DNA of 64,000 bases from positions 3,516-67,515 of the forward strand of contig OMYR01000018.1 in assembly GCA_900315335.1 (NCBI GenBank). Direction: 5' to 3'. Positions within the stretch are counted from its first letter, which is position 1, and each line of letters opens with the position of its first letter. Source of the DNA: an uncultured Bacteroidales bacterium. GTDB lineage: Bacteria > Bacteroidota > Bacteroidia > Bacteroidales > P3. The notes under the pieces are model-generated. The model searched no databases, was not told where the DNA came from, and was given only the letters and a program-made list of their open reading frames with translations. The translations under genes and the position numbers were made by a program. Positions 9,169 through 64,000 of this stretch are shown here, piece after piece.

Positions 9169-9420
9169 ATGGCAAATCATAAAAGTGCATTAAAGAGAGT
9201 ACGTCAGAGCGAAAAGAGAAAATTGTACAATCGTTATCATTCAAAAACGATGAGACATGCTTTGAGAGATTTTAGAGCTATTACAGATAAGAAAGAAGCA
9301 GAAGAAAAACTTCCTAAAATGATTTCTGTAATTGATAAGTTGGCACAGCGTTCTATTATTCACAAGAATAAAGCAGCTAACTTGAAATCAAAATGTATGA
9401 AGAAAGTAGCGACTTTGTAG
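9169..9420 (+). CDS. rpsT: 30S ribosomal protein S20
   Basis: 83 aa. N-terminus MANHKSALKRVRQSEKRKLYNR is typical of bS20. Very basic. Confidence 0.92.
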   Translation: MANHKSALKRVRQSEKRKLYNRYHSKTMRHALRDFRAITDKKEAEEKLPKMISVIDKLAQRSIIHKNKAANLKSKCMKKVATL

Positions 9421-49836: not shown

Positions 49837-50976
49837 TTAAGAGTCTTTGTTGAGGTTTTTGATTTTAACGTCTTTATAATAAAACTCTATAACCTCCCAA
49901 TACTCATAACCGCTCTCGCACATATTGACAGCACCCTCTTGGCTCATACCTACACCGTGTCCGTAGCCTCTGCCTTTGAGTTTAATGTTGCTACCCCAAA
50001 CAATAACGTCAAAATATGTACTTTTCAAATTGAAATCTTTACGAATTTGCGTCAAAGGAACGCCTAATATGTCGGTTTTTCTGCCTTGTGATTGAGAGAA
50101 AGAAAGCAGCTCGTCTTTGTTTTTCTTTGTGTTGATGCCCTTGCCTTTGAAATAGTTCAGCCATTGCTTTTGTGTTATTTCTTTTTCCCATTTTGCGTTC
50201 GGCATATTCAAGGAAAAAGAATCCACAACGCTGCGTAGGTACGGAATTTTATTACTCCATACATCTTCGCTGTTAGATGTCTGTCCGCCACTGTTGGAGT
50301 GAAAAAGCGTTTCTATGATTTTGTCATTTTCATCTACTATAATCTCGCCGTTTGTACTTGCAGCCCCTTCGATACATTGCGGCTTGTTCGCACGAGAAAG
50401 ATATACTTGACAATTTACGTCATCGCAAAGGTTGTAGCCGTCCTTGGCGTGTTTGTTTATAAACCTATACATATAACTTCTGCAACAAATGGCCTGAACC
50501 TTGAAGAACTCCACATTGTCGCTCGCTCCACCGGCTTCGCTTTGCACAACACCCGCCAAATAATTGTCTTGACTTACATCGTTTATAATTATAAGATTCT
50601 TTTTGGCAACGTCTAACTTTATTATGATATTGTTGTCATATCGTCTTGGTTTGACGTTATCAGGCGTAATTTGGACAAAACATTTCAAATCTTCACTTGA
50701 TATTTTTACGCTGTCGGTCTTTGCAATCGTTTTGTCGTTTAACGAAACTGCAATTTTGCAGTCATTGACCGATATATTGACTTTATTGCTTTTGTTTAGT
50801 TTTATTGAATCGTTCAAAGTGTAAGCACCAAAGGACGGGGTAAGGGTTAATGACGTTATGTTGCAAGTGGAAAAAACTCTTACCCTTACGTTTTGTGCCA
50901 TTGTCTTGGTGGTGCAGGCTGCAAATAAAGTTATAGTAAGAATATTTATGCTTAATAAATAAAGTATCTTTTTCAT
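49837..50976 (-). CDS. SpoIID/LytB-domain protein
   Basis: 379 aa with a signal peptide. YLAGVVQSEAG, LFHSNSGGQTSNSEDVW, and GYGHGVGMSQEGA. Confidence 0.8.
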   Translation of the reverse strand: MKKILYLLSINILTITLFAACTTKTMAQNVRVRVFSTCNITSLTLTPSFGAYTLNDSIKLNKSNKVNISVNDCKIAVSLNDKTIAKTDSVKISSEDLKCFVQITPDNVKPRRYDNNIIIKLDVAKKNLIIINDVSQDNYLAGVVQSEAGGASDNVEFFKVQAICCRSYMYRFINKHAKDGYNLCDDVNCQVYLSRANKPQCIEGAASTNGEIIVDENDKIIETLFHSNSGGQTSNSEDVWSNKIPYLRSVVDSFSLNMPNAKWEKEITQKQWLNYFKGKGINTKKNKDELLSFSQSQGRKTDILGVPLTQIRKDFNLKSTYFDVIVWGSNIKLKGRGYGHGVGMSQEGAVNMCESGYEYWEVIEFYYKDVKIKNLNKDS

Positions 50977-56748: not shown

Positions 56749-56982
56749 ATGAACAACAACAGACATATAAGAAGTCTCATTAGCGGAGGTGGCAATCAGG
56801 GGAATATCCTGTTGGCAGTTAAAATCGCTGACAGACTAAAGGAGATGAATCCAGCAAATGAAATTCTTTTTATCGGAGTTAAAGACCGTGAGGAGATGGA
56901 AATCGTTTCAAAACATGGTTATGACATTGTTGGCATACCTGCTGCAAGGATAGTGAAAGGGGCTTTTATGTCTTATGTGCTA
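56749..56982 (+). pseudogene. 5' fragment of a MurG-like (GT28 N-terminal domain) glycosyltransferase gene, truncated by the IS
   Basis: RSLISGGGNQGNILLAVKIADRLKEMNPANEILFIGVKDREEMEIVSKHGYDIVGIPAA parallels the MurG N-terminus (ISGGGTGGHIFPA...ILFVG...ME...GY.I.G), with a degenerate G-loop. The reading frame runs into the IS terminal repeat after about 78 codons. No continuation is found on the far side of the IS. Confidence 0.65.
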
Positions 56983-58305
56983 TCATTGCTGTCCGGAGAA
57001 ATTTTACCATAAAGTGAGTTGCCTGGCAGAGTCGTCCTCCGGAACATTTAACGGCTCAACAGGTTTGTTATAAAAATCTCGGATGTCTCCTCTTTTGAAG
57101 AGAATCTGTCCGATGGAATTAGAAATTGTATGAAGACTGGGCTTCAATCCATATTGCTTCTTTGCTATAATAAGCAGCAGATAGTCACAAATGGCTATCC
57201 ATATCTGCGTATAGACAGCATTCCTGGATGTGCCATAGAATGTCTTGATATGCAGATGCTGCTTAATCCATTTGAAGAATATTTCAATCTGCCATCTCTC
57301 CCGATACAGTTCAGCAACTGTAAGTGCTTCGACGATGAAGTTATTGGTGAGAAAACGGTAGACTTTTCCATCCCTAAAATCCTCATACACTACAAGCCTG
57401 AGATTATCGGGGTACTTCTTGGAAGTATAATATCCGGAAAGTTTGACCGTTTCGTCAGAAATAAGACCGGCGTGCGAATCAACTTCACGAGACTCGACAA
57501 CTTCGTACAACATATTATCCTTGGCTCTCGTAACGAACCACGCGTGGTTTTGATGGAAGTGCTTGTAAAGCGTATCAAATTTCACATAACCTTTATCCAT
57601 GAGATAGTAGGCGTTCGCTTCTACGGGTATTTCTTCCATAATCTTGGAATCGTGTACAGAGGCTTCTGTGAGGCGGATAAAAGTAGGGATAGAACCATTC
57701 AAATCCATAAGCGTATGCATCTTGAAACCTCCTTTCCCGTGATGAAGCGTGGCCCATGGACACAGAGAAAGACACAATTCAATGGTACTGCTGTCAAACG
57801 CACAAACCATTTCATCAAGGTCAAGTCTGAGTCTTTCTCCCTCATACAACTTCTTGGCCTTCTGTATCAAGACGTAACCAAAGTCCTGATAAATACGCCA
57901 GTCCCTTTTCTCGTTCGCTTCCGCAAGTGTGGATTTCGGCATAATCTTCAGACCGGATCTATACAAGTCTTGCGAGCAAAGATCAAGAGTAGTCTCAATA
58001 TCTCTCAAACCGCTTCTGTCTGTGAATTGCGCAAAACTCATTACCAAGAACTGGTCTCGGCAATTAAACTTTATTGCATGTCGGTCACCTTTGTAATGTT
58101 TGACACACTTGCTGAATTCATATTCGGTAAAAAGAGACATAAGTTGAGCGAAGATTGTTTTGCCTTTATTCATGACTTGCAGAAACTGGATTTAATACCA
58201 TTCTGCAAACTTACGAGTTCTAATCGAAAAATAATTTTTGCCTTGTAACTTATTATATTTTAAATAATTAAATGCTATCGGAGATTTTTTCTCCGGACAC
58301 TAATG
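56983..58305 (-). mobile_element. IS4-family insertion sequence (about 1.32 kb)
   Basis: Terminal inverted repeats CATTGCTGTCCGGAGAAA (56983-57000) and TTTCTCCGGACACTAATG (58288-58305), matching at 16 of 18 positions. A single transposase ORF lies inside. I could not find a flanking direct repeat. Confidence 0.8.
57004..58173 (-). CDS. IS4-family DDE transposase
   Basis: 389 aa. N-terminal MNKGKTIFAQLMSLFTEYEFSKCV (DUF4372-like region common in Bacteroidota IS4 transposases). DDE-region contexts AFDSSTI, YYLMDKGY and ERWQIEIFFKWIKQ. Confidence 0.85.
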   Translation of the reverse strand: MNKGKTIFAQLMSLFTEYEFSKCVKHYKGDRHAIKFNCRDQFLVMSFAQFTDRSGLRDIETTLDLCSQDLYRSGLKIMPKSTLAEANEKRDWRIYQDFGYVLIQKAKKLYEGERLRLDLDEMVCAFDSSTIELCLSLCPWATLHHGKGGFKMHTLMDLNGSIPTFIRLTEASVHDSKIMEEIPVEANAYYLMDKGYVKFDTLYKHFHQNHAWFVTRAKDNMLYEVVESREVDSHAGLISDETVKLSGYYTSKKYPDNLRLVVYEDFRDGKVYRFLTNNFIVEALTVAELYRERWQIEIFFKWIKQHLHIKTFYGTSRNAVYTQIWIAICDYLLLIIAKKQYGLKPSLHTISNSIGQILFKRGDIRDFYNKPVEPLNVPEDDSARQLTLW

Positions 58306-58546
58306 AATGAGTACATGTACACATATATACCTGTGTACATAGACACAGACGATGCCTGTCCACGAATGTTGAACGCACTAATTACTTTTTCTCATAACTG
58401 AGGGGTGCCTGCTCGTGATGAGTAGGCACCCTTGCCTTTTATGATAAAAACATGGGAATGGTCATGGAATGAATCTCGTATTTCATGCAATTAAAGCAAG
58501 GGAAACTAAAAAAATGCACCGTTTGCGTCATTTTTACGCCAAAATA

Positions 58547-58578
58547 TTTGGTTGCGTCAAAATAACGCATTAGCTTTG
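58547..58578 (+). promoter_or_regulatory. Bacteroides-type promoter (TTTG / TAGCTTTG) with embedded palindrome, upstream of the Nudix cassette
   Basis: TTTG at 58547-58550 and TAGCTTTG at 58571-58578 with a 20-nt spacer. TGCGTcaaaataACGCA (58553-58569) lies between the two boxes. Confidence 0.5.
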
Positions 58579-58604
58579 CACCTGTAATTGATAAATCATT
58601 TGGC

Positions 58605-59342
58605 ATGTACACATATAAATATCCTCATCCTGCTGTCACTACAGACAGTGTTATCTTTGGCTTTGATGGGTCGAGCATAAATATTCTCCTCATAGAGCGA
58701 GGTTTGGAGCCTTACAAAGGAACTTGGGCTTTGCCAGGTGGTTTCCTCTGCATGGACGAGACGGTCGAGGAGGGAGCCAAAAGAGAACTTTGTGAAGAGA
58801 CAAACATAAATAATGTCTATCTGGAGCAGTTTCATGTATTCAGTGAGGTTAATCGTGACCCTCGTGAAAGAGTGTTGACTGTTGCATTCTTTGCTTTGGT
58901 GAGCAAAAATGATTTCAAGGTTATAGCTGGTGATGATGCGAGCAAGGCTCAATGGTACGAGTGGAATCACCTGCCCCCTTTAGCCTTTGATCATTCTGAA
59001 ATCATCTCTATGGCAAGAAGGAAACTACAGGAAAAACTTAGAGTGTCACCCATCGCTTTCAAATTATTGGACAACGAGTTTAAGATGGACGAGCTGCAGC
59101 GAATCTATGAGTTAATACACGAGAAGAAGTATGACCGTCGCAATTTCCTTCGCAAGATGGAGGCTTCCGGGTTTCTCATAAAAAAGGAACAGGAAGATAA
59201 TCGTGTATGTGGTATGATGCTCCCTGACGTAATGGAAGACGCTGCTTCCCCACATACCCTCTATGCGTATTCATTTGATGAAGAAGCATTTGCAAAGGCA
59301 AGCACATCCAAAGAATGGCGTAAATATCCTTTTGACTTTTAA
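58605..59342 (+). CDS. Nudix hydrolase fused to a winged-helix domain (NrtR-like ADP-ribose-responsive regulator/pyrophosphatase)
   Basis: 245 aa. Intact Nudix box GGFLCMDETVEEGAKRELCEETNI. The C-terminal 80 aa or so (FKLLDNEFKMDELQRIYELIHEKKYDRRNFLRKMEASGFLI) matches the NrtR wHTH pattern as I recall it. Confidence 0.7.
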   Translation: MYTYKYPHPAVTTDSVIFGFDGSSINILLIERGLEPYKGTWALPGGFLCMDETVEEGAKRELCEETNINNVYLEQFHVFSEVNRDPRERVLTVAFFALVSKNDFKVIAGDDASKAQWYEWNHLPPLAFDHSEIISMARRKLQEKLRVSPIAFKLLDNEFKMDELQRIYELIHEKKYDRRNFLRKMEASGFLIKKEQEDNRVCGMMLPDVMEDAASPHTLYAYSFDEEAFAKASTSKEWRKYPFDF

Positions 59343-59354
59343 TATTATTTGACT

Positions 59355-59867
59355 ATGAGAACAATTAGAATCAACAGAAACTCAGATTTGAGATTACCTC
59401 ATTCTGTACGCTCTTATATTGACGGATGTGCACATGAGTTTTCCGAAACGGATGAATGGACAAAAATCGCTCACATAGCCTATAGGATAAAGCGTGGAGC
59501 AAATCTTCTGCCTTCTTTCATGGAAGACATAGAACGACACATGGCAGATCCAGCCTACCACGACTATGAGAATACGGCAAAGCAAAGTATCGCATCCTAT
59601 ATAGAACTGTTGCGTATTGATGAGAACTATGTCCTTACGATGGAACTGGCAGAAAGCAACAGTTTCCCGAAACTCTTTCAATTATTGACAGAAGAAATAC
59701 TCTATCGCTATTGGGAAAACATCAATGATGGCAAGGTAGAATGTCATTTCGATGATGTACATTATGACTACGATGAGATAGCCTCACGTTATGCAGATGT
59801 GACTACGGCAAGACGTGACTTCATCAAGTACATTTCAACCTCTCAGGAACACACTCCGCAACATTGA
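59355..59867 (+). CDS. Hypothetical protein (170 aa, acidic), cassette gene 2
   Basis: ATG at 59355, 12 nt after the Nudix stop. The track start at 59349 is a TTG. No recognisable motif. Confidence 0.55.
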   Translation: MRTIRINRNSDLRLPHSVRSYIDGCAHEFSETDEWTKIAHIAYRIKRGANLLPSFMEDIERHMADPAYHDYENTAKQSIASYIELLRIDENYVLTMELAESNSFPKLFQLLTEEILYRYWENINDGKVECHFDDVHYDYDEIASRYADVTTARRDFIKYISTSQEHTPQH

Positions 59868-59868
59868 C

Positions 59869-60666
59869 GTGGAAAAACATAACATCAAGCAGAAAAATGG
59901 GTGGGCAACGGTTGCTGAAAGCCTTTATGGTTATACGCTATGGTCTGACAAAGAAGAGGATGAACGCATATATCCTGGTGATGCCACGTTTATCCACGAC
60001 TTCAACAGCAAGGTGGATTCAAAATACAAGTATGTTGTGGGCGTGCCTCCTATGCCATTCTCAGGTAATTTGCTTGACGCCAAGGTTGTCATTCTGACGC
60101 TGAACCCTGGATATGTGGAAAAGGTTAACAAGGACTTATGTATGAACATGAACGATTCAGAGAAAGAGCAGTTGTTATGCTTAATGAGAAACGCACTATC
60201 CTTTCAGGGAGAAGGCATCTATGATGGTAACAAGTGTTCAAGAGCGCAAGGTAATTATTACTGGCAGCAGGCTTTTGACCAACTTGCAATAGAAGCATAC
60301 GGCAAGCCTTCATCAGAGATATACCATCCCATCTTTCACGATATAGCCATCTTTCAGCTCATCGGTTATCACTCAGAAAAATTTAGATACTCTTCGGGCA
60401 TAAAACATCTTCCTTCGACGATATTCACCAATCTGTTGGCAAAATATCTTGCCACGAAGACAGACAAGACCTTTCTCATTCTACGCTCAGAATCACTTTG
60501 GAAGGAAACCTTCGGCGAAGAACTGTGGAGCAAACTGGAGAAAGAAGACCGCCTCATTACCAAGGGGCATAAGGGGATGTCTCAGAAAATCACACGAGGC
60601 AACCTCCAAAAAGACAATGGTTTTGATAAACTTGTCAAACTTTTAAGGAATGATAGTCATGAGTAA
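59869..60666 (+). CDS. Hypothetical protein (265 aa from GTG 59869; 283 aa if ATG 59815), cassette gene 3
   Basis: The in-frame GTG at 59869 lies immediately after the upstream stop (TGA 59865-59867). ATG 59815 would overlap the upstream gene by 53 nt. Contains GNLLDAKVVILTLNPGY and FQLIGYHSEKF. No family confidently recognised. Confidence 0.55.
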   Translation: MEKHNIKQKNGWATVAESLYGYTLWSDKEEDERIYPGDATFIHDFNSKVDSKYKYVVGVPPMPFSGNLLDAKVVILTLNPGYVEKVNKDLCMNMNDSEKEQLLCLMRNALSFQGEGIYDGNKCSRAQGNYYWQQAFDQLAIEAYGKPSSEIYHPIFHDIAIFQLIGYHSEKFRYSSGIKHLPSTIFTNLLAKYLATKTDKTFLILRSESLWKETFGEELWSKLEKEDRLITKGHKGMSQKITRGNLQKDNGFDKLVKLLRNDSHE

Positions 60667-61108
60667 AAACAGAACAGAAAACCCAAATATAGCCTCAGAT
60701 AGAATCGATATTCTTGAAAAGGGTGAGATTTTCGTCTTTTGCAGTAATCTTGCCGGTCATCACATGGGTGGAGCTGCAAGAGCTGCTCACAAGAAGTTCG
60801 GCGCAGAATGGGGCGTTGGTGTAGGACTTACAGGTCAGTCCTATGCCATACCTACCATGCAGGGAGGTGTTGAAACTATCAAACCCTACGTTGATGAGTT
60901 CATTGAGTTTGCAAATCAGCACCAGGATATGAAGTTTCTGGTAACACGTATTGGATGCGGTATAGCAGGCTTCAAGGACGAAGAGATTGCTCCACTTTTC
61001 AGGAATGCTGTCCTTTCAAGCAACATTTACCTGCCACAGACGTTCTTCGACATCCTGCGCTGTCGTTCCCGTCGCCGAGAAATAGGCTACCAGTATTTTG
61101 TCGTTTGA
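60662..61108 (+). CDS. Macrodomain-like protein (A1S_2505-like phage-type family), 3' end chimeric
   Basis: ATG 60662 overlaps the upstream stop (ATGAGTAA). VFCSNLAGHHMGGAARAAHKKFGA and TRIGCGIAGF resemble the two macrodomain signatures. GQSYAIPT is a motif I associate with a phage-borne family. The last 20 codons or so (RCRSRRREIGYQYFVV) are antisense read-through of the truncated flavodoxin gene. Confidence 0.55.
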   Translation, partial: SKNRTENPNIASDRIDILEKGEIFVFCSNLAGHHMGGAARAAHKKFGAEWGVGVGLTGQSYAIPTMQGGVETIKPYVDEFIEFANQHQDMKFLVTRIGCGIAGFKDEEIAPLFRNAVLSSNIYLPQTFFDILRCRSRRREIGYQYFVV

Positions 61109-61198
61109 TTTTCCTTTGCCCATATCCTGTCTTTGCTGTGCGTCGGTGGCGGTCGCCATGCCGACCACCGACAGCAATATCAATAAGAACCTATACAT
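61016..61198 (-). pseudogene. Truncated flavodoxin gene (5' end of about 50 codons only)
   Basis: MYRFLLILLSVVGMATATDAQQ (signal) ... KILVAYFSATGTTAQDVEERL parallels the intact flavodoxin at 46403-46954 (KTLVTYFSATGTTEAVAKQL). It then diverges (WQVNVA) and stops. Full-length flavodoxins are about 160-185 aa. Confidence 0.7.
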
Positions 61199-61206
61199 GA
61201 TGTTTA

Positions 61207-62022
61207 CTATTTGAGTTTGTCATATTCCTCGTCAGTTACGGGTTCCAGCCACTCATTGGAAGCGTTTTCACCTGAAATCTCGAATGCGAGGTGCGCAAAC
61301 CAGCTGTCTGCCGCTGCTCCGTGCCAATGCTTCACATTTGCAGGAATGTGGATGACCGTTCCGGGCAGAATCTCTACGGCAGGTTTGCCTTCTTCCTGAT
61401 ACCAGCCGCGCCCGGCAACACCGATAAGCATCTGTCCGCCGCCTTTCGTTGCTTTGTGGATGTGCCAGTTGTTACGACAACGTGGCTCGAAGGTGACATT
61501 GGATATGTTCACCTGCTCCCGCGAAACCGGTGCGAGATAGCTATTGCCTGTGAAGTACTTGGCATAAGCTGTGTTCGGTTCTCCTATGGGAAAGATCATT
61601 TCACGCTGGAAAGCCGCCTTGGCATCCCCTCCTGTCGTGTCTTCTGCCCACACGTTCTTAGCGAGGTTGAATGCCGCCCAAGCCTTGGGCCATCCGGCAT
61701 AAAAACCGATGTGGGTGATAATCTCGGCAATTTCAGTGCGGGTGATGCCGTTTTTCTTCGCCTCCTGAAGATGAAAACCAAGTGAATTGTCTGTAATTCC
61801 TTGACTGATGAGCGAGGTAATTGTTACAAGACTACGGTCGCGAAGACCGAGTTTATCAGTACGACTCCACACCTCACCGAAGAGGACATCATCGTTAAGC
61901 TCCGCAAACTTGGGAGCGAACTCGCCGAGCTGGTTGCGCCCGGCCGTTTGTACTATCTTTTCCTGTGCCATAACATTGAATGTTAAAATGCTGAATATTG
62001 AAATTAAAATGATTTTATTCAT
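61207..62022 (-). CDS. Carboxymuconolactone decarboxylase-family / cupin fusion protein with signal peptide
   Basis: 271 aa. Signal MNKIILISIFSILTFNVMAQ. CMD region (VWSRTDKLGLRDRSLVTITSL...ITHIGFYAGWPKAW). Cupin region (NNWHIHKATKGGGQMLIGVAGRGWYQ...HWHGA). Confidence 0.75.
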   Translation of the reverse strand: MNKIILISIFSILTFNVMAQEKIVQTAGRNQLGEFAPKFAELNDDVLFGEVWSRTDKLGLRDRSLVTITSLISQGITDNSLGFHLQEAKKNGITRTEIAEIITHIGFYAGWPKAWAAFNLAKNVWAEDTTGGDAKAAFQREMIFPIGEPNTAYAKYFTGNSYLAPVSREQVNISNVTFEPRCRNNWHIHKATKGGGQMLIGVAGRGWYQEEGKPAVEILPGTVIHIPANVKHWHGAAADSWFAHLAFEISGENASNEWLEPVTDEEYDKLK

Positions 62023-62027
62023 GATTC

Positions 62028-63023
62028 TTACTGAATGAAGTTATTGATTCGGTTTGCAGGGTTAAGCGGTGTCTGGTCAGTCAGCACCAGTGACTTGACC
62101 ATGTGCAGCGTTCCCTGCTTGTATTTCTGAAAATGCTCCGAGGCAATGTGCTTCTCGTAGGCTTCACGGCTTGCGTAGGTTTCGAGAATGGTTATCTTGC
62201 AGGGATTCTCTTTTTCACCGACAGCGTACATGGTCAGTACGCCCGGTTCGGTACGCAGGGAGACTTCGCCAACCTCGGTTGCGTATTTCATATACTCGTC
62301 GAGATACTGCGGGTAAACCTCGATTTTCGACAGGCGCACGATACCGTTGGCACCCATCGCTTCCTTGACGCACATTCCCGGCTGCTTGTCCAAGTTCAAA
62401 CATTTTCCGATAATCTCTCCGGTGGCAATATAGGAATAGGTCGGAAACTCGAACAGTACAGGTTTCAATCTTGTATAGTCGAGTTTCCCGTCAGCGTCAA
62501 GTACATCCGGAGCAGCGTAAGTGTTGGCAATGGAGCAGATGAAGTTGTCGAAGCCTTCGGTTTCGTAGATGTCCACCACGTCACACTCCATCGTCAGCGG
62601 TGAGGCATCGATTACGGGCGTTCCGTTTTCTCCCCAATGGTATTCGAATAGGTTTGATTTATCGACCGATGCACCGCTCACGCTGCCCACATAGTCGGCT
62701 TTCGGCAACATTTCGCGACTGACAAGGTTGATAGAAAGTTTCTTTGACTCACGTATCCCTTGATTGGTGTAGTGGCTTTTACTCATGCTCACGAGAATCC
62801 GGTCGTGACCGATGATACCCGTATGTCCCACAACAAGCCAGTTTACCTTGCCCTCTACCTCCGCACCGACAACGGTCATTGGCTTGGGATAGAGAGCAAG
62901 CAGGTTTCCGATATTCTTCTTTTCCATTTCCGTACTGTTTTGTTTGTTTGTCTCTTTTGTCGGCTGCGTATTGCACGACAACAAAAGGGAGAGAAACAAG
63001 ATGGTTAATATTGATTTTCTCAT
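62028..63023 (-). CDS. Flavin reductase-like / ABM (antibiotic biosynthesis monooxygenase) fusion lipoprotein
   Basis: 331 aa. Lipobox LLLSCNTQ. Flavin-reductase-like N-domain (PKPMTVVGAEVEGKVNWLVVGHTG). C-terminal ABM-like domain (IVRLSKIEVYPQYLDEY...TILETYASREAYEKHIASEHFQKY). Confidence 0.7.
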   Translation of the reverse strand: MRKSILTILFLSLLLSCNTQPTKETNKQNSTEMEKKNIGNLLALYPKPMTVVGAEVEGKVNWLVVGHTGIIGHDRILVSMSKSHYTNQGIRESKKLSINLVSREMLPKADYVGSVSGASVDKSNLFEYHWGENGTPVIDASPLTMECDVVDIYETEGFDNFICSIANTYAAPDVLDADGKLDYTRLKPVLFEFPTYSYIATGEIIGKCLNLDKQPGMCVKEAMGANGIVRLSKIEVYPQYLDEYMKYATEVGEVSLRTEPGVLTMYAVGEKENPCKITILETYASREAYEKHIASEHFQKYKQGTLHMVKSLVLTDQTPLNPANRINNFIQ

Positions 63024-63038
63024 TCTTATGATTGCATT

Positions 63039-63614
63039 TCAGATACTTTTAATCATTTTTGCCGGGACACCGCCCACGACCGTATTGACCGCTACGTCTT
63101 TCGTAACGACTGCACCTGCCGCGACAATGGCATTGTCACCGATAGTCACACCTTGTAATATCGTGGCATTAGAGCCAATCCATACATTCTTACCAAGCAC
63201 GATTGGTGCCGGATACGTGTGCTTACGTTCTTCGGGAGCAAGGCCGTGGTTAAGCGTGGCAAAGACTACATTATGCCCGATTTGGCATCCGTCGCCTATC
63301 GTGACACCGCCATGATCCTGAAAATGACAACAAGCGTTGATGAACACTCCTTCGCCTACGGTGATGTTTTTCCCGAAATCAGCGTAAAACGGCGGGAAAA
63401 CACGAAGCGACTGCGGTACTTCATAGCCGAGCAACTCGGATAGCATTCCGCGCACTTCATCCGGCGTATGATAAGCCGTATTCAGACGAAAAGTGATGCG
63501 ACGGGCCTCGTTGCTCATCTCATCCATAAAGCAGTGTATCTCTTCTGTATCAAGAGGTTTGCCCGCATTTGCATATATCTTAAAATCTTCGATTGTCATA
63601 TTTATTTTTTTCAA
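63039..63614 (-). CDS. Sugar O-acetyltransferase (maltose/galactoside acetyltransferase-like, left-handed beta-helix)
   Basis: 191 aa. Hexapeptide repeats (IGDGCQIGHNVVF, IGSNATILQGVTIGDNAIVAAGAVV). Mac-type N-terminus. Start may be ATG 63599 (MTIEDF). Confidence 0.8.
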   Translation of the reverse strand: MKKINMTIEDFKIYANAGKPLDTEEIHCFMDEMSNEARRITFRLNTAYHTPDEVRGMLSELLGYEVPQSLRVFPPFYADFGKNITVGEGVFINACCHFQDHGGVTIGDGCQIGHNVVFATLNHGLAPEERKHTYPAPIVLGKNVWIGSNATILQGVTIGDNAIVAAGAVVTKDVAVNTVVGGVPAKMIKSI

Positions 63615-64000
63615 ATTTAACCTTTATATCTCCGCCTACTGTCAGAGCAGAAATGCCATCGTCATCTATATGTCCAATCCTAATCAGGTCATTGCTGTGT
63701 GACCAGTTCTTGCAAAAAATAGCCACGTTGCCCCACGGAGCATATATCGTAATATCGCCGGGAACAGGTGCGCAACCGCGTTTTACCCCTTCAAGTGTCA
63801 AAGCCGGATCAGGATAAAATATTTTCTCTGTCGTATTATTAAAGTCGTTCAGCGTAACTTCCAACGGCAGACGGGAAAGGAAATCCCTGCCTGCCGCATT
63901 GTCTTCCATTGTGGCGGAAATTATCCGGTCGCCTACTATGATGTTCACTTTCAAAGAAGTTGCGTCCGGCGTATCGGGTTCGCCCGGTTCTTCCCGGCTT
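63580..64000 (-). CDS. Cyclophilin-like-fold protein, partial (5' end beyond the right window edge)
   Basis: The ORF track starts at a TTG (63954), but the frame stays open to nt 64000. My hand translation upstream reads SREEPGEPDTPDATS, a typical post-lipobox linker. The core is VNIIVGDRIISATMEDNAAGRDFLSRLPL...GDITIYAPWGNVAIF. Confidence 0.65.
   Translation of the reverse strand, partial: SREEPGEPDTPDATSLKVNIIVGDRIISATMEDNAAGRDFLSRLPLEVTLNDFNNTTEKIFYPDPALTLEGVKRGCAPVPGDITIYAPWGNVAIFCKNWSHSNDLIRIGHIDDDGISALTVGGDIKVKFEKNKYDNRRF

Follow-up and report, generated by a model that had tools for sequence, protein, structure and literature searches.

A decayed three-gene operon of gut Bacteroidales mobile elements and its probable role in the removal of ADP-ribose

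Introduction

The closest described relatives of the locus reported here are the 'ARG-centric' systems, which are known from actinobacteria, planctomycetes and proteobacteria and usually also encode a phosphatase (~55%) and a chaperone (Iyer et al. 2022, Viruses 14:1977, PMC9503650). The operon logic predicted for them combines an ADP-ribosylglycohydrolase (ARG) with a transcription factor of the Nudix or WYL type and an optional Macro domain, without a linked ADP-ribosyltransferase (ART) (PMC9503650, section 3.8), and the class itself is a computational prediction only (Iyer et al. 2022, PMC9503650). Here we describe a locus at positions 58306–61056 of a 64,000-nucleotide stretch of DNA (the window) from an uncultured Bacteroidales bacterium (GenBank assembly GCA_900315335.1, contig OMYR01000018.1), which is a decayed copy of a three-gene operon circulating on conjugative or mobilisable elements of gut Bacteroidales. 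We consider it likely that the intact operon, induced by ADP-ribose, serves to remove ADP-ribose from macromolecules that carry this modification.

Like the ARG-centric systems, the Bacteroidales operon combines an ADP-ribosylglycohydrolase core with a putative negative regulator of the Nudix-helix-turn-helix (NrtR-like) type; this is seen in intact relatives, whereas the window copy has lost the ARG. In both a linked ART is missing (from most loci), Macro is an optional additional ADP-ribose-processing domain, and modules are variably gained and lost in mobile or conflict-type contexts. Unlike the described systems, the Bacteroidales operon carries a macrodomain of the A1S_2505 type that is fused directly to the ADP-ribosylglycohydrolase (ARH) domain, and it encodes an additional, undescribed protein of 437 amino acids. 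With DarT-DarG and the phage enzyme AdfN it has in common that an ADP-ribose remover is carried by a mobile element or phage that lacks the matching transferase, but it differs from them in that DarT is missing and in that a macro-ARH fusion takes the place of a NADAR enzyme or a DarG macrodomain. The operon family is an undescribed Bacteroidales variant of the predicted class.

Results and Discussion

Anatomy of the locus

Four open reading frames (ORFs) follow each other on the plus strand, namely gene 1 (58605–59342, 245 amino acids), gene 2 (59355–59867, 170 amino acids), gene 3 (59869–60666, 265 amino acids, GTG start) and gene 4 (60659–61108, 149 amino acids). An initial annotation made from the sequence alone had described them as a four-gene cassette behind a TTTG/TAGCTTTG promoter. 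The four same-strand ORFs, the promoter and the motifs quoted for gene 4 are all present, but the cassette consists of three genes, two of them damaged, as a frameshift has split one gene into genes 2 and 3 and only a fragment of another gene is left as gene 4. The junctions between the ORFs lie where they had been placed, except that 59867/59869 is a frameshift within one gene and that the overlap of genes 3 and 4, previously given as 60662–60666, has to be corrected to ATGAGTAA at 60659–60666.

A +1 insertion has divided a single gene into genes 2 and 3. The reading frame of gene 3 is +1 relative to that of gene 2, and DNA alignment with the loci L005, L019, L021 and L023 locates a 1-nucleotide insertion at ~59850 on the plus strand (GGAA-C-ACAC), at the inter-domain linker of the 437-amino-acid gene. 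A search with gene 3 gave 95 proteins, and nearly all full-length ones among them are ~431–460 amino acids long, which corresponds to genes 2 and 3 taken together. P0002, the nearest of the intact relatives, is ~91% identical across the repaired protein and reads ...STSQETLRNIEV... where the window has ...STSQEHTPQH* followed by a restart in the +1 frame, the last five codons of gene 2 (HTPQH) being out of frame.

Gene 4, as its alignment indicates, is the 5' third of a gene for a 542-amino-acid macro-ARH (ARH3/DraG-type) fusion protein. This gene follows the 437-amino-acid ORF in L005 and other loci, and its product consists of an A1S_2505 domain, a linker and an ADP-ribosylglycohydrolase domain. 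Gene 4 tracks the 542-amino-acid protein for 133 residues (97% identical) and then continues with 16 unrelated codons. At the DNA level, window positions 58306–61056 are 89.7% identical to L005 6960–9704 and the homology ends inside gene 4, after ...FFDIL, at 61056. The 16-codon tail (RCRSRRREIGYQYFVV) and its stop at 61057–61108 (plus strand), set off by the alignment and by a step in guanine-plus-cytosine (GC) content, are the product of a deletion junction. As the gene ends at 61056, the ARH domain is absent from the window. In the 542-amino-acid protein this domain matches PF03747 (ADP_ribosyl_GH, 2.9e-40), is closest to ARH3 in the PDB (~1e-16 to 1e-17) and keeps the metal-site motifs YTDDT and GGDADT; macro-ARH proteins form clusters of 195 and 1676 sequences. 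The ADP-ribose theme that had been suggested for the cassette is stronger than first noted, the macrodomain being fused to an ARH3/DraG-type ADP-ribosylglycohydrolase in intact relatives. The window copy has lost its ARH activity and is probably partly functional at best.

After repair of the frameshift no further stops are present, and the ratio of nonsynonymous to synonymous substitution rates (dN/dS) against relatives is 0.03–0.15 for all three genes, which together argue that the damage is recent. These values indicate that all reading frames are real coding sequence under purifying selection. The split and truncated alleles were seen on at least 10 contigs that stem from different samples and assemblers, which rules out a sequencing error as the cause of the split. 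Programmed frameshifting is also ruled out, as the frame is uninterrupted in nearly all homologues and the two split alleles go back to different indels. The split and truncated alleles are a small minority: the 90% cluster that contains gene 2 has 189 members, almost all of 437 amino acids, and the macro-ARH clusters of 195 and 1676 sequences are those of the intact fusion. The other split allele was found in L043 (3276–4570), where an independent −1 frameshift, GAG(G)TGAGTG, lies about six codons from the insertion in the window and leaves ORFs of 170 and 248 amino acids, which suggests that a break at the inter-domain linker is tolerated. In L042 the N-terminal ORF of the split gene has decayed to 111 amino acids and the C-domain ORF is intact. 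The window copy itself matters only as an example of fast cargo decay.

The macrodomain gene

The homologous part of gene 4 (60659–61056, plus strand) is predicted to encode a divergent macrodomain of the A1S_2505 / N4 gp14-like family. It matches the complete NF049995 profile ("A1S_2505 family phage non-structural protein", 1–109 of 109) with 150.5 bits at a cutoff of 45 and phrog_2072 with 1.5e-38. The family is large, at least 8000 candidates being found in a protein search, and tblastn detected it in 332 phage records, mostly N4-like, in which it is ~125 amino acids long, lies in early regions and is often annotated as "N4 gp14-like". These matches bear out the phage-borne family with which one of the gene 4 motifs had been associated. 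In the literature on A1S_2505 and N4 gp14 we found no functional study.

At the sequence level, the family shows no match to Pfam Macro or to a PDB sequence, and hhalign against YmdB of E. coli gave E = 0.67. An AlphaFold model built from 22 non-phage sequences (predicted local distance difference test (pLDDT) 80.1, predicted template modelling score (pTM) 0.78) was compared to the PDB, and all of its top 50 matches are macrodomains (50 of 50; probability 0.84–1.0, template modelling (TM) score 0.43–0.65, E about 1e-2), among them TTHA0132, macroH2A1.1, PARP14, TARG1, DarG, MacroD1/2 and alphavirus nsP3. The macrodomain-like nature ascribed to gene 4 in the initial annotation is thus upheld as a predicted fold, and by prediction only we regard the family as a divergent macro-fold family. 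With the macrodomain hydrolases TARG1, MacroD1/2, DarG and the viral nsP3 macrodomain it would have in common the three-layer alpha/beta/alpha fold and glycine-rich loops after the first strand and near the C-terminal strand. It differs from known macrodomains in its size of only ~125 amino acids, in the missing match to the Pfam Macro and YmdB profiles and in its own signature motifs, FVFGSNxxGxHGxGAA, G-x-S/C-YAIPT and TRIGCGIAG; gene 4 has the substitution G28C, a Cys in place of the Gly in FVFGSN that is nearly invariant in the family. If true, the large and unnamed A1S_2505 / "N4 gp14-like" family would be placed as a compact macrodomain.

Some further observations concern the same family. 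Some metagenomic proteins of 265–273 amino acids (P0361–P0366) contain tandem A1S_2505-type macrodomains in one polypeptide. In phages the macro-like gene is found next to genes for DUF2493 (SLOG), DUF4326 and Nuc_deoxyrib_tr, as in Klebsiella phage KP8 (L034 990–2875) and Agrobacterium phage 7-7-1 (L037 1–1860), and the domains of all these early neighbours have links to the processing of nucleotides or ADP-ribose. The phage gene was named 'ADP-ribosylglycohydrolase' or 'ADP-ribosyltransferase' by some of its depositors.

The 437-amino-acid protein

The AlphaFold model of the intact 437-amino-acid protein (pLDDT 92, pTM 0.92) shows two domains, of which the N-terminal, mostly helical one corresponds to gene 2 and the alpha/beta C-terminal domain to gene 3. 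Conserved motifs of the C-domain are PPMPFSGN (SGN), LNPGY, YW, GYHS (GY-x-S), R...W and KGHxGMSQ, and an invariant His follows its last strand. A profile search against 1.8 billion representatives gave 545 clusters at 50% identity, many of them proteins of 250–300 amino acids that match the C-domain only, and gene 3 thus corresponds to an autonomous and widespread domain. Searches among phages, plasmids and viral contigs gave one, four (weak) and one match, respectively, so the 437-amino-acid gene is not a typical phage or plasmid gene.

Neither gene 2 nor gene 3 nor the intact protein matches any entry of Pfam, NCBIfam, PADLOC or PHROGs. PDB sequence searches with genes 2, 3 and 4 returned noise only, and a 63-member profile of the C-domain found nothing in the PDB. 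A Pfam scan of these 63 relatives gave scattered singletons, one of which (1/63) is a match to PF03167 with E = 0.023, and in distant relatives the only signs of fused domains were weak YopX matches. Foldseek searches with the model against the PDB and BFVD gave no match at E < 1e-3, and the N-domain matched nothing. The top PDB match of the whole model is the uracil-DNA glycosylase (UDG) BdiUNG (probability 0.85, E = 0.15, TM 0.36), with UNG2 lower down, and in the viral library eight UDGs are among the top 30 matches, all of them weak. With hhalign, for which the Mug and UNG sequences had been checked against the PDB, AKVVILTLNPGY of the C-domain is placed on LRVVFCGINPGL of Mug in a short collinear match that brings beta1 and NPG onto GINPG, and a helix, beta3 and the xS segment are placed on the corresponding segment of UNG, again short and collinear (E 0.03–0.05 for the two matches). 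The two fold searches and the alignment somewhat favour a UDG-like fold for the C-domain. The fold search that had been proposed for genes 2 and 3 hence gave a weak UDG-like match and no ART fold.

Compared to the UDG superfamily including Brig1 and Brig2, the C-domain shows top or recurring structural matches in two libraries that are not statistically significant, collinear elements, the invariant His after the last strand and spread on mobile elements, while the additional 170-amino-acid N-domain and the lack of a Pfam UDG match set the 437-amino-acid protein apart. To our knowledge, an operon link to ADP-ribose enzymes is without precedent for UDGs. If the proposed reading of the operon is true, a new protein family (545 clusters, no Pfam model, possible UDG fold) would be tied to ADP-ribose biology. 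As a separate observation, L038 (6001–11331) encodes a C-domain-only homologue of 255 amino acids, followed by a 54-amino-acid ORF and a 1253-amino-acid protein of the YobI-ATPase family; an annotated weak UDG gene is close by and the context is island-like.

The regulator and its operators

The domain matches identify gene 1 as an intact Nudix and winged-helix regulator of the NrtR/AraR family, as had been proposed. Pfam finds a NUDIX domain (PF00293, 3.2e-18, residues 11–134) and the winged helix NrtR_WHD (PF21906, 2.9e-12, residues 151–198), the Nudix box GGFLCMDETVEEGAKRELCEETNI is complete and its REx2EE is kept. The closest PDB match is AraR of B. thetaiotaomicron (5bs6, 3e-44), followed by NrtR of Shewanella (3gz5, 1e-25), and the NrtR equivalog NF050029 of NCBIfam is matched with 137.5 bits, below its curated cutoff of 400. 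Its sole PADLOC match, to the candidate family PDC-S07, is weak and of the Nudix type. The dN/dS of gene 1 against relatives is 0.05. The NrtR/AraR family of Nudix-related transcription factors was reportedly described by Rodionov in 2008, Huang in 2009 and Chang in 2015, and gene 1 has the same domain architecture and putative palindromic operators that overlap the promoter of its own operon. It differs from the family in its target genes, which are neither NAD nor arabinose genes, and from AraR in its intact Nudix catalytic box.

The promoter is of the Bacteroidetes type (58547–58578, plus strand), with a −33 box TTTG at 58547–58550 and a −7 box TAGCTTTG at 58571–58578 that are separated by a spacer of 20 nucleotides. 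Such −33/−7 boxes are the consensus of Bacteroides sigma-ABfr promoters. Two 17-nucleotide operator-like imperfect palindromes of the form TTGCGTCA-N5-ACGC (GCGT-N7-ACGC) occur as a direct repeat at 58523–58539 and 58552–58568 (plus strand), the second of them between the −33 and −7 boxes. Palindromes and promoter are nearly invariant in 10 loci in which the sequence further upstream cannot be aligned, and nearly all of the searched loci with a regulator have the operator motif upstream of its gene, but none of the loci without a regulator has it. In the window four matches to the motif are observed versus 0.5 expected. From this conservation on the promoter of gene 1 and the over-representation of the motif we infer that gene 1 is an autorepressor acting through two putative operators. 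For its anti-repressor ligand, context alone suggests ADP-ribose, since AraR as the nearest solved relative senses arabinose. An exact operator-like match, TGCGTCAAAGGAACGC, also occurs at 50048–50063 within a SpoIID-like gene (49837–50976, minus strand), probably by chance.

Co-occurrence and mobile context

We scanned one genome per species and obtained 15 species-level loci, nearly all from Bacteroidales (Bacteroides pyogenes, Prevotella spp., Muribaculaceae and others). The 437-amino-acid gene is full-length in 12 of the 15; in 10 of these 12 the regulator lies directly upstream, and in 10 of the 12 a macro and/or ARH gene lies directly downstream, mostly with overlapping stop and start codons. 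Neighbours of the operon are Mob_Pre, ArdC-N/MPTase-PolyVal, TraG, HsdM_N and AbiEi genes, and the operon usually resides on conjugative or mobilisable elements. The neighbourhood survey that had been suggested earlier therefore confirms co-occurrence on mobile elements but not an obligate linkage of the genes.

Three kinds of reduced or altered loci were found. In L008–L013 the 437-amino-acid gene stands alone, but the first codons of the macro gene still follow it as remnants (L008 7859–7972, L012 ~9375–9405; MGRNRT...RIDMLEE and MSRNR...), which indicates that these loci arose from the full operon by deletion. For the protein P0038 alone, an intact 437-amino-acid gene is retained on at least 23 contigs with the macro gene deleted. 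In L014–L018 the regulator and the macro gene are present without the 437-amino-acid gene, and the macro ORF stops at a TTG-to-TAG nonsense codon with ARH remnants after it. Finally, the macro gene of L042–L044 and L026 stands alone, and a gene for a 746-amino-acid protein comes after it, the order in this variant being regulator, 437-amino-acid gene, 135-amino-acid macrodomain, 746-amino-acid protein and 174-amino-acid protein (L043 4575–7790; L026 7307–9966). By eye the N-terminus of the 746-amino-acid protein is SIR2-like (GAGA...FNWDPLL...FLHGN) with two CxxC pairs; among NCBIfam families it matches only an NAD-dependent deacylase (E = 0.024), and a RES-domain match remains below threshold (E = 1e-3, 19.5 bits versus a cutoff of 23.2). 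In L026 its gene is split into ORFs of 266 and 442 amino acids. Possibly the 746-amino-acid protein takes the place of the ARH as an effector that uses NAD.

Further genes were noticed downstream of the operon. In two loci that are otherwise of different types the next gene after that for the ARH is PAD_porph (agmatine or peptidyl-arginine deiminase-like; L019 9089–10132, L015 9138–10100), which hints at arginine-linked substrates. In L005 (10977–13009), L019 (10702–12761) and L020 a 218-amino-acid radical-SAM protein similar to activases of glycyl-radical enzymes is encoded together with a 469-amino-acid serpin, and no gene for a glycyl-radical enzyme is located near this pair.

Proposed function and alternative explanations

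The proposed removal of ADP-ribose starts from the anatomy, operators, domain identities and linkage described above and supposes an effector, substrates and an enemy for them. By default the regulator would keep the operon off through the two operators overlapping its own promoter. A foreign ADP-ribosyltransferase, which might be a phage ART, a contact-dependent toxin or a DarT-like enzyme, would then modify macromolecules of the cell, from which free ADP-ribose or a derivative would arise. Binding of this ligand to the Nudix domain would release the repressor, the macro-ARH enzyme would strip ADP-ribose from its targets, and the 437-amino-acid protein would act on the same substrates, possibly on nucleic acid via its UDG-like domain. 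This course of events follows the scheme put forward for the ARG-centric systems by Iyer et al. 2022 (PMC9503650), in which a Nudix-type repressor silences the operon, ADP-ribose set free from modified targets induces it, and ARG and Macro domains undo what a foreign transferase has modified. If true, the predicted ADP-ribosylation-reversal operons would gain a gut-Bacteroidales version with abundant representatives in metagenomes of humans and animals.

Several findings weigh against this model. The genes are not obligately linked, each of them occurring without the others in some lineages, and the variant with the 746-amino-acid protein in place of the ARH fits an effector-containing system better than a pure repair module. 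A phosphatase or chaperone partner as in the ARG-centric systems was not detected in the Bacteroidales loci examined. The nearest solved relative of the regulator, AraR, senses arabinose and not ADP-ribose. For the 437-amino-acid protein, the UDG-like match is weak (Foldseek E = 0.15, no PDB sequence match, no Pfam UDG match), and its N-domain is without a match in Foldseek and family scans.

Other explanations were considered as well. The operon could be a counter-defence of conjugative elements that shields incoming single-stranded or newly replicated DNA from DarT-type DNA ADP-ribosylation, with the UDG-like protein handling modified bases, in parallel to the orphan DarG-like NADAR enzymes (AdfN) carried by phages. 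Orphan antitoxin-like ADP-ribosylglycohydrolases were indeed demonstrated to act against DarTG1 (PMC11825919). Beside the operon lie genes of the anti-restriction type (ArdC-N/MPTase-PolyVal) and Mob/TraG genes, N4-like phages commonly carry the macrodomain family in their early regions beside SLOG/DUF2493, DUF4326 and Nuc_deoxyrib_tr genes, and the C-domain of the middle protein hints at a UDG-like fold. However, an ADP-ribose-inducible repressor would be slow for guarding DNA at its entry, several copies lie in chromosomes without element genes close by, a specific link to DNA substrates is missing, and the ARH domain is nearest to ARH3. ARH3 acts on protein and poly(ADP-ribose) substrates. 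Overall we regard such a counter-defence as unlikely. An even bolder version, in which the 437-amino-acid protein is a UDG-fold glycosylase for ADP-ribosylated bases and forms, with macro-ARH and the ADP-ribose-sensing repressor, an inducible anti-DarT system of Bacteroidales conjugative elements, is a speculation that we think improbable; if true, it would add a new substrate class to the UDG superfamily and represent a counter-defence of a new kind. On several occasions defence has recruited UDG-family enzymes, which have spread with mobile elements (PMC11078745; bioRxiv 10.1101/2025.10.29.685425), and a Brig-like independent defence role of the UDG-like protein is possible: it would then be a defence DNA glycosylase like Brig1 and Brig2 that acts against modified phage DNA and was inserted by chance between the regulator and the macro-ARH gene, without a joint function in ADP-ribose removal. 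This would agree with the wide occurrence of the 437-amino-acid gene or its C-domain without the other genes (545 clusters), with the homologue near a YobI-ATPase in L038, with the solitary genes of L008–L013 and with regulator-macro pairs that do without the 437-amino-acid gene. Yet where the genes occur together they share one promoter and overlap in their stop and start codons, the 'stand-alone' copies keep a remnant of the macro start and are thus operon-derived, and with a weak UDG similarity and no PADLOC match we judge such an independent role to be quite unlikely.

The initial annotation had compared the cassette to DarT-DarG, and a toxin-antitoxin or abortive infection system, in which genes 2 and 3 encode the toxin and the gene 4 macrodomain neutralises it, would fit the pattern of a macrodomain next to unknown proteins on mobile DNA, the faint SIR2-like and RES-like signals in the 746-amino-acid protein that follows the macro gene in the variant operon and the AbiEi neighbour in L029. 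The analogy found no support: no ART, RES or SIR2 signal was detected in the 437-amino-acid protein with Pfam, NCBIfam, PADLOC, the PDB or Foldseek, and the 437-amino-acid gene and the macro gene each persist without the other (L008–L013 and L014–L018). An intact 437-amino-acid gene even survives deletion of the macro gene on the contigs with P0038, which a toxin should not tolerate, and in the window the 'antitoxin' is damaged along with the 'toxin'. As each component can be missing in one lineage or another and the searches gave no ART-like fold, we consider a toxin-antitoxin function very unlikely. The suggestion that the cassette is a defence module likewise found no backing in PADLOC, which matched none of genes 2–4, the intact P0002 or the macro-ARH proteins. 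An ordinary NrtR regulon for NAD or ADP-ribose housekeeping without any role in conflict could account for an NrtR-family regulator whose intact Nudix box may itself hydrolyse ADP-ribose and for the chromosomal location of some copies, but in none of the loci examined is the operon linked to a gene of NAD biosynthesis or salvage, and the distribution is patchy, element-borne and often decayed, which makes it extremely improbable. We therefore prefer the induced removal of ADP-ribose as the function of the operon.

Edges of the locus and neighbouring genes

To the left, the locus is bordered by an IS4-like insertion sequence (IS) at 56983–58306 on the minus strand with a DDE transposase ORF at 57004–58173 (minus strand; DDE_Tnp_1 7e-29 and DUF4372 1e-22 in Pfam) and 19-nucleotide inverted repeats at 56983–57001 and 58288–58306. 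The end of the IS abuts the promoter region of the window copy, and on the left the homology to intact operons begins exactly at its right inverted repeat (58306). Within the part that aligns with L005, a terminator-like hairpin with a T run (58401–58433, plus strand) is, to judge from the alignment, a leftover of the gene that precedes the operon in intact elements. On the other side of the IS, an 87-amino-acid ORF (56749–57012) with weak N-terminal similarity to Glyco_transf_28 (MurG-like) ends at the left inverted repeat and looks like a gene cut by the IS insertion or by a rearrangement.

To the right, GC content changes from 0.40–0.44 across the cassette to 0.48–0.51 downstream. A shortened flavodoxin-like ORF (61016–61198, minus strand) converges on the same junction as gene 4, and its translation consists of a signal-like start, followed by KILVAYFSATGTT and then by gene 4 antisense; an IS on one side and a broken gene on the other had been noted before, and both were found. 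Beyond this ORF follows a redox cluster of higher GC content on the minus strand (61207–63954) with CMD/cupin, flavin reductase-ABM, hexapeptide acetyltransferase and flavodoxin-cyclophilin-like genes. In L001 this cluster extends beyond the window with aldo-keto reductases and AraC and then MobC_2 and DUF3408, and it looks like a separate cargo of a mobile element that was joined to the cassette by the deletion at 61056/61057.

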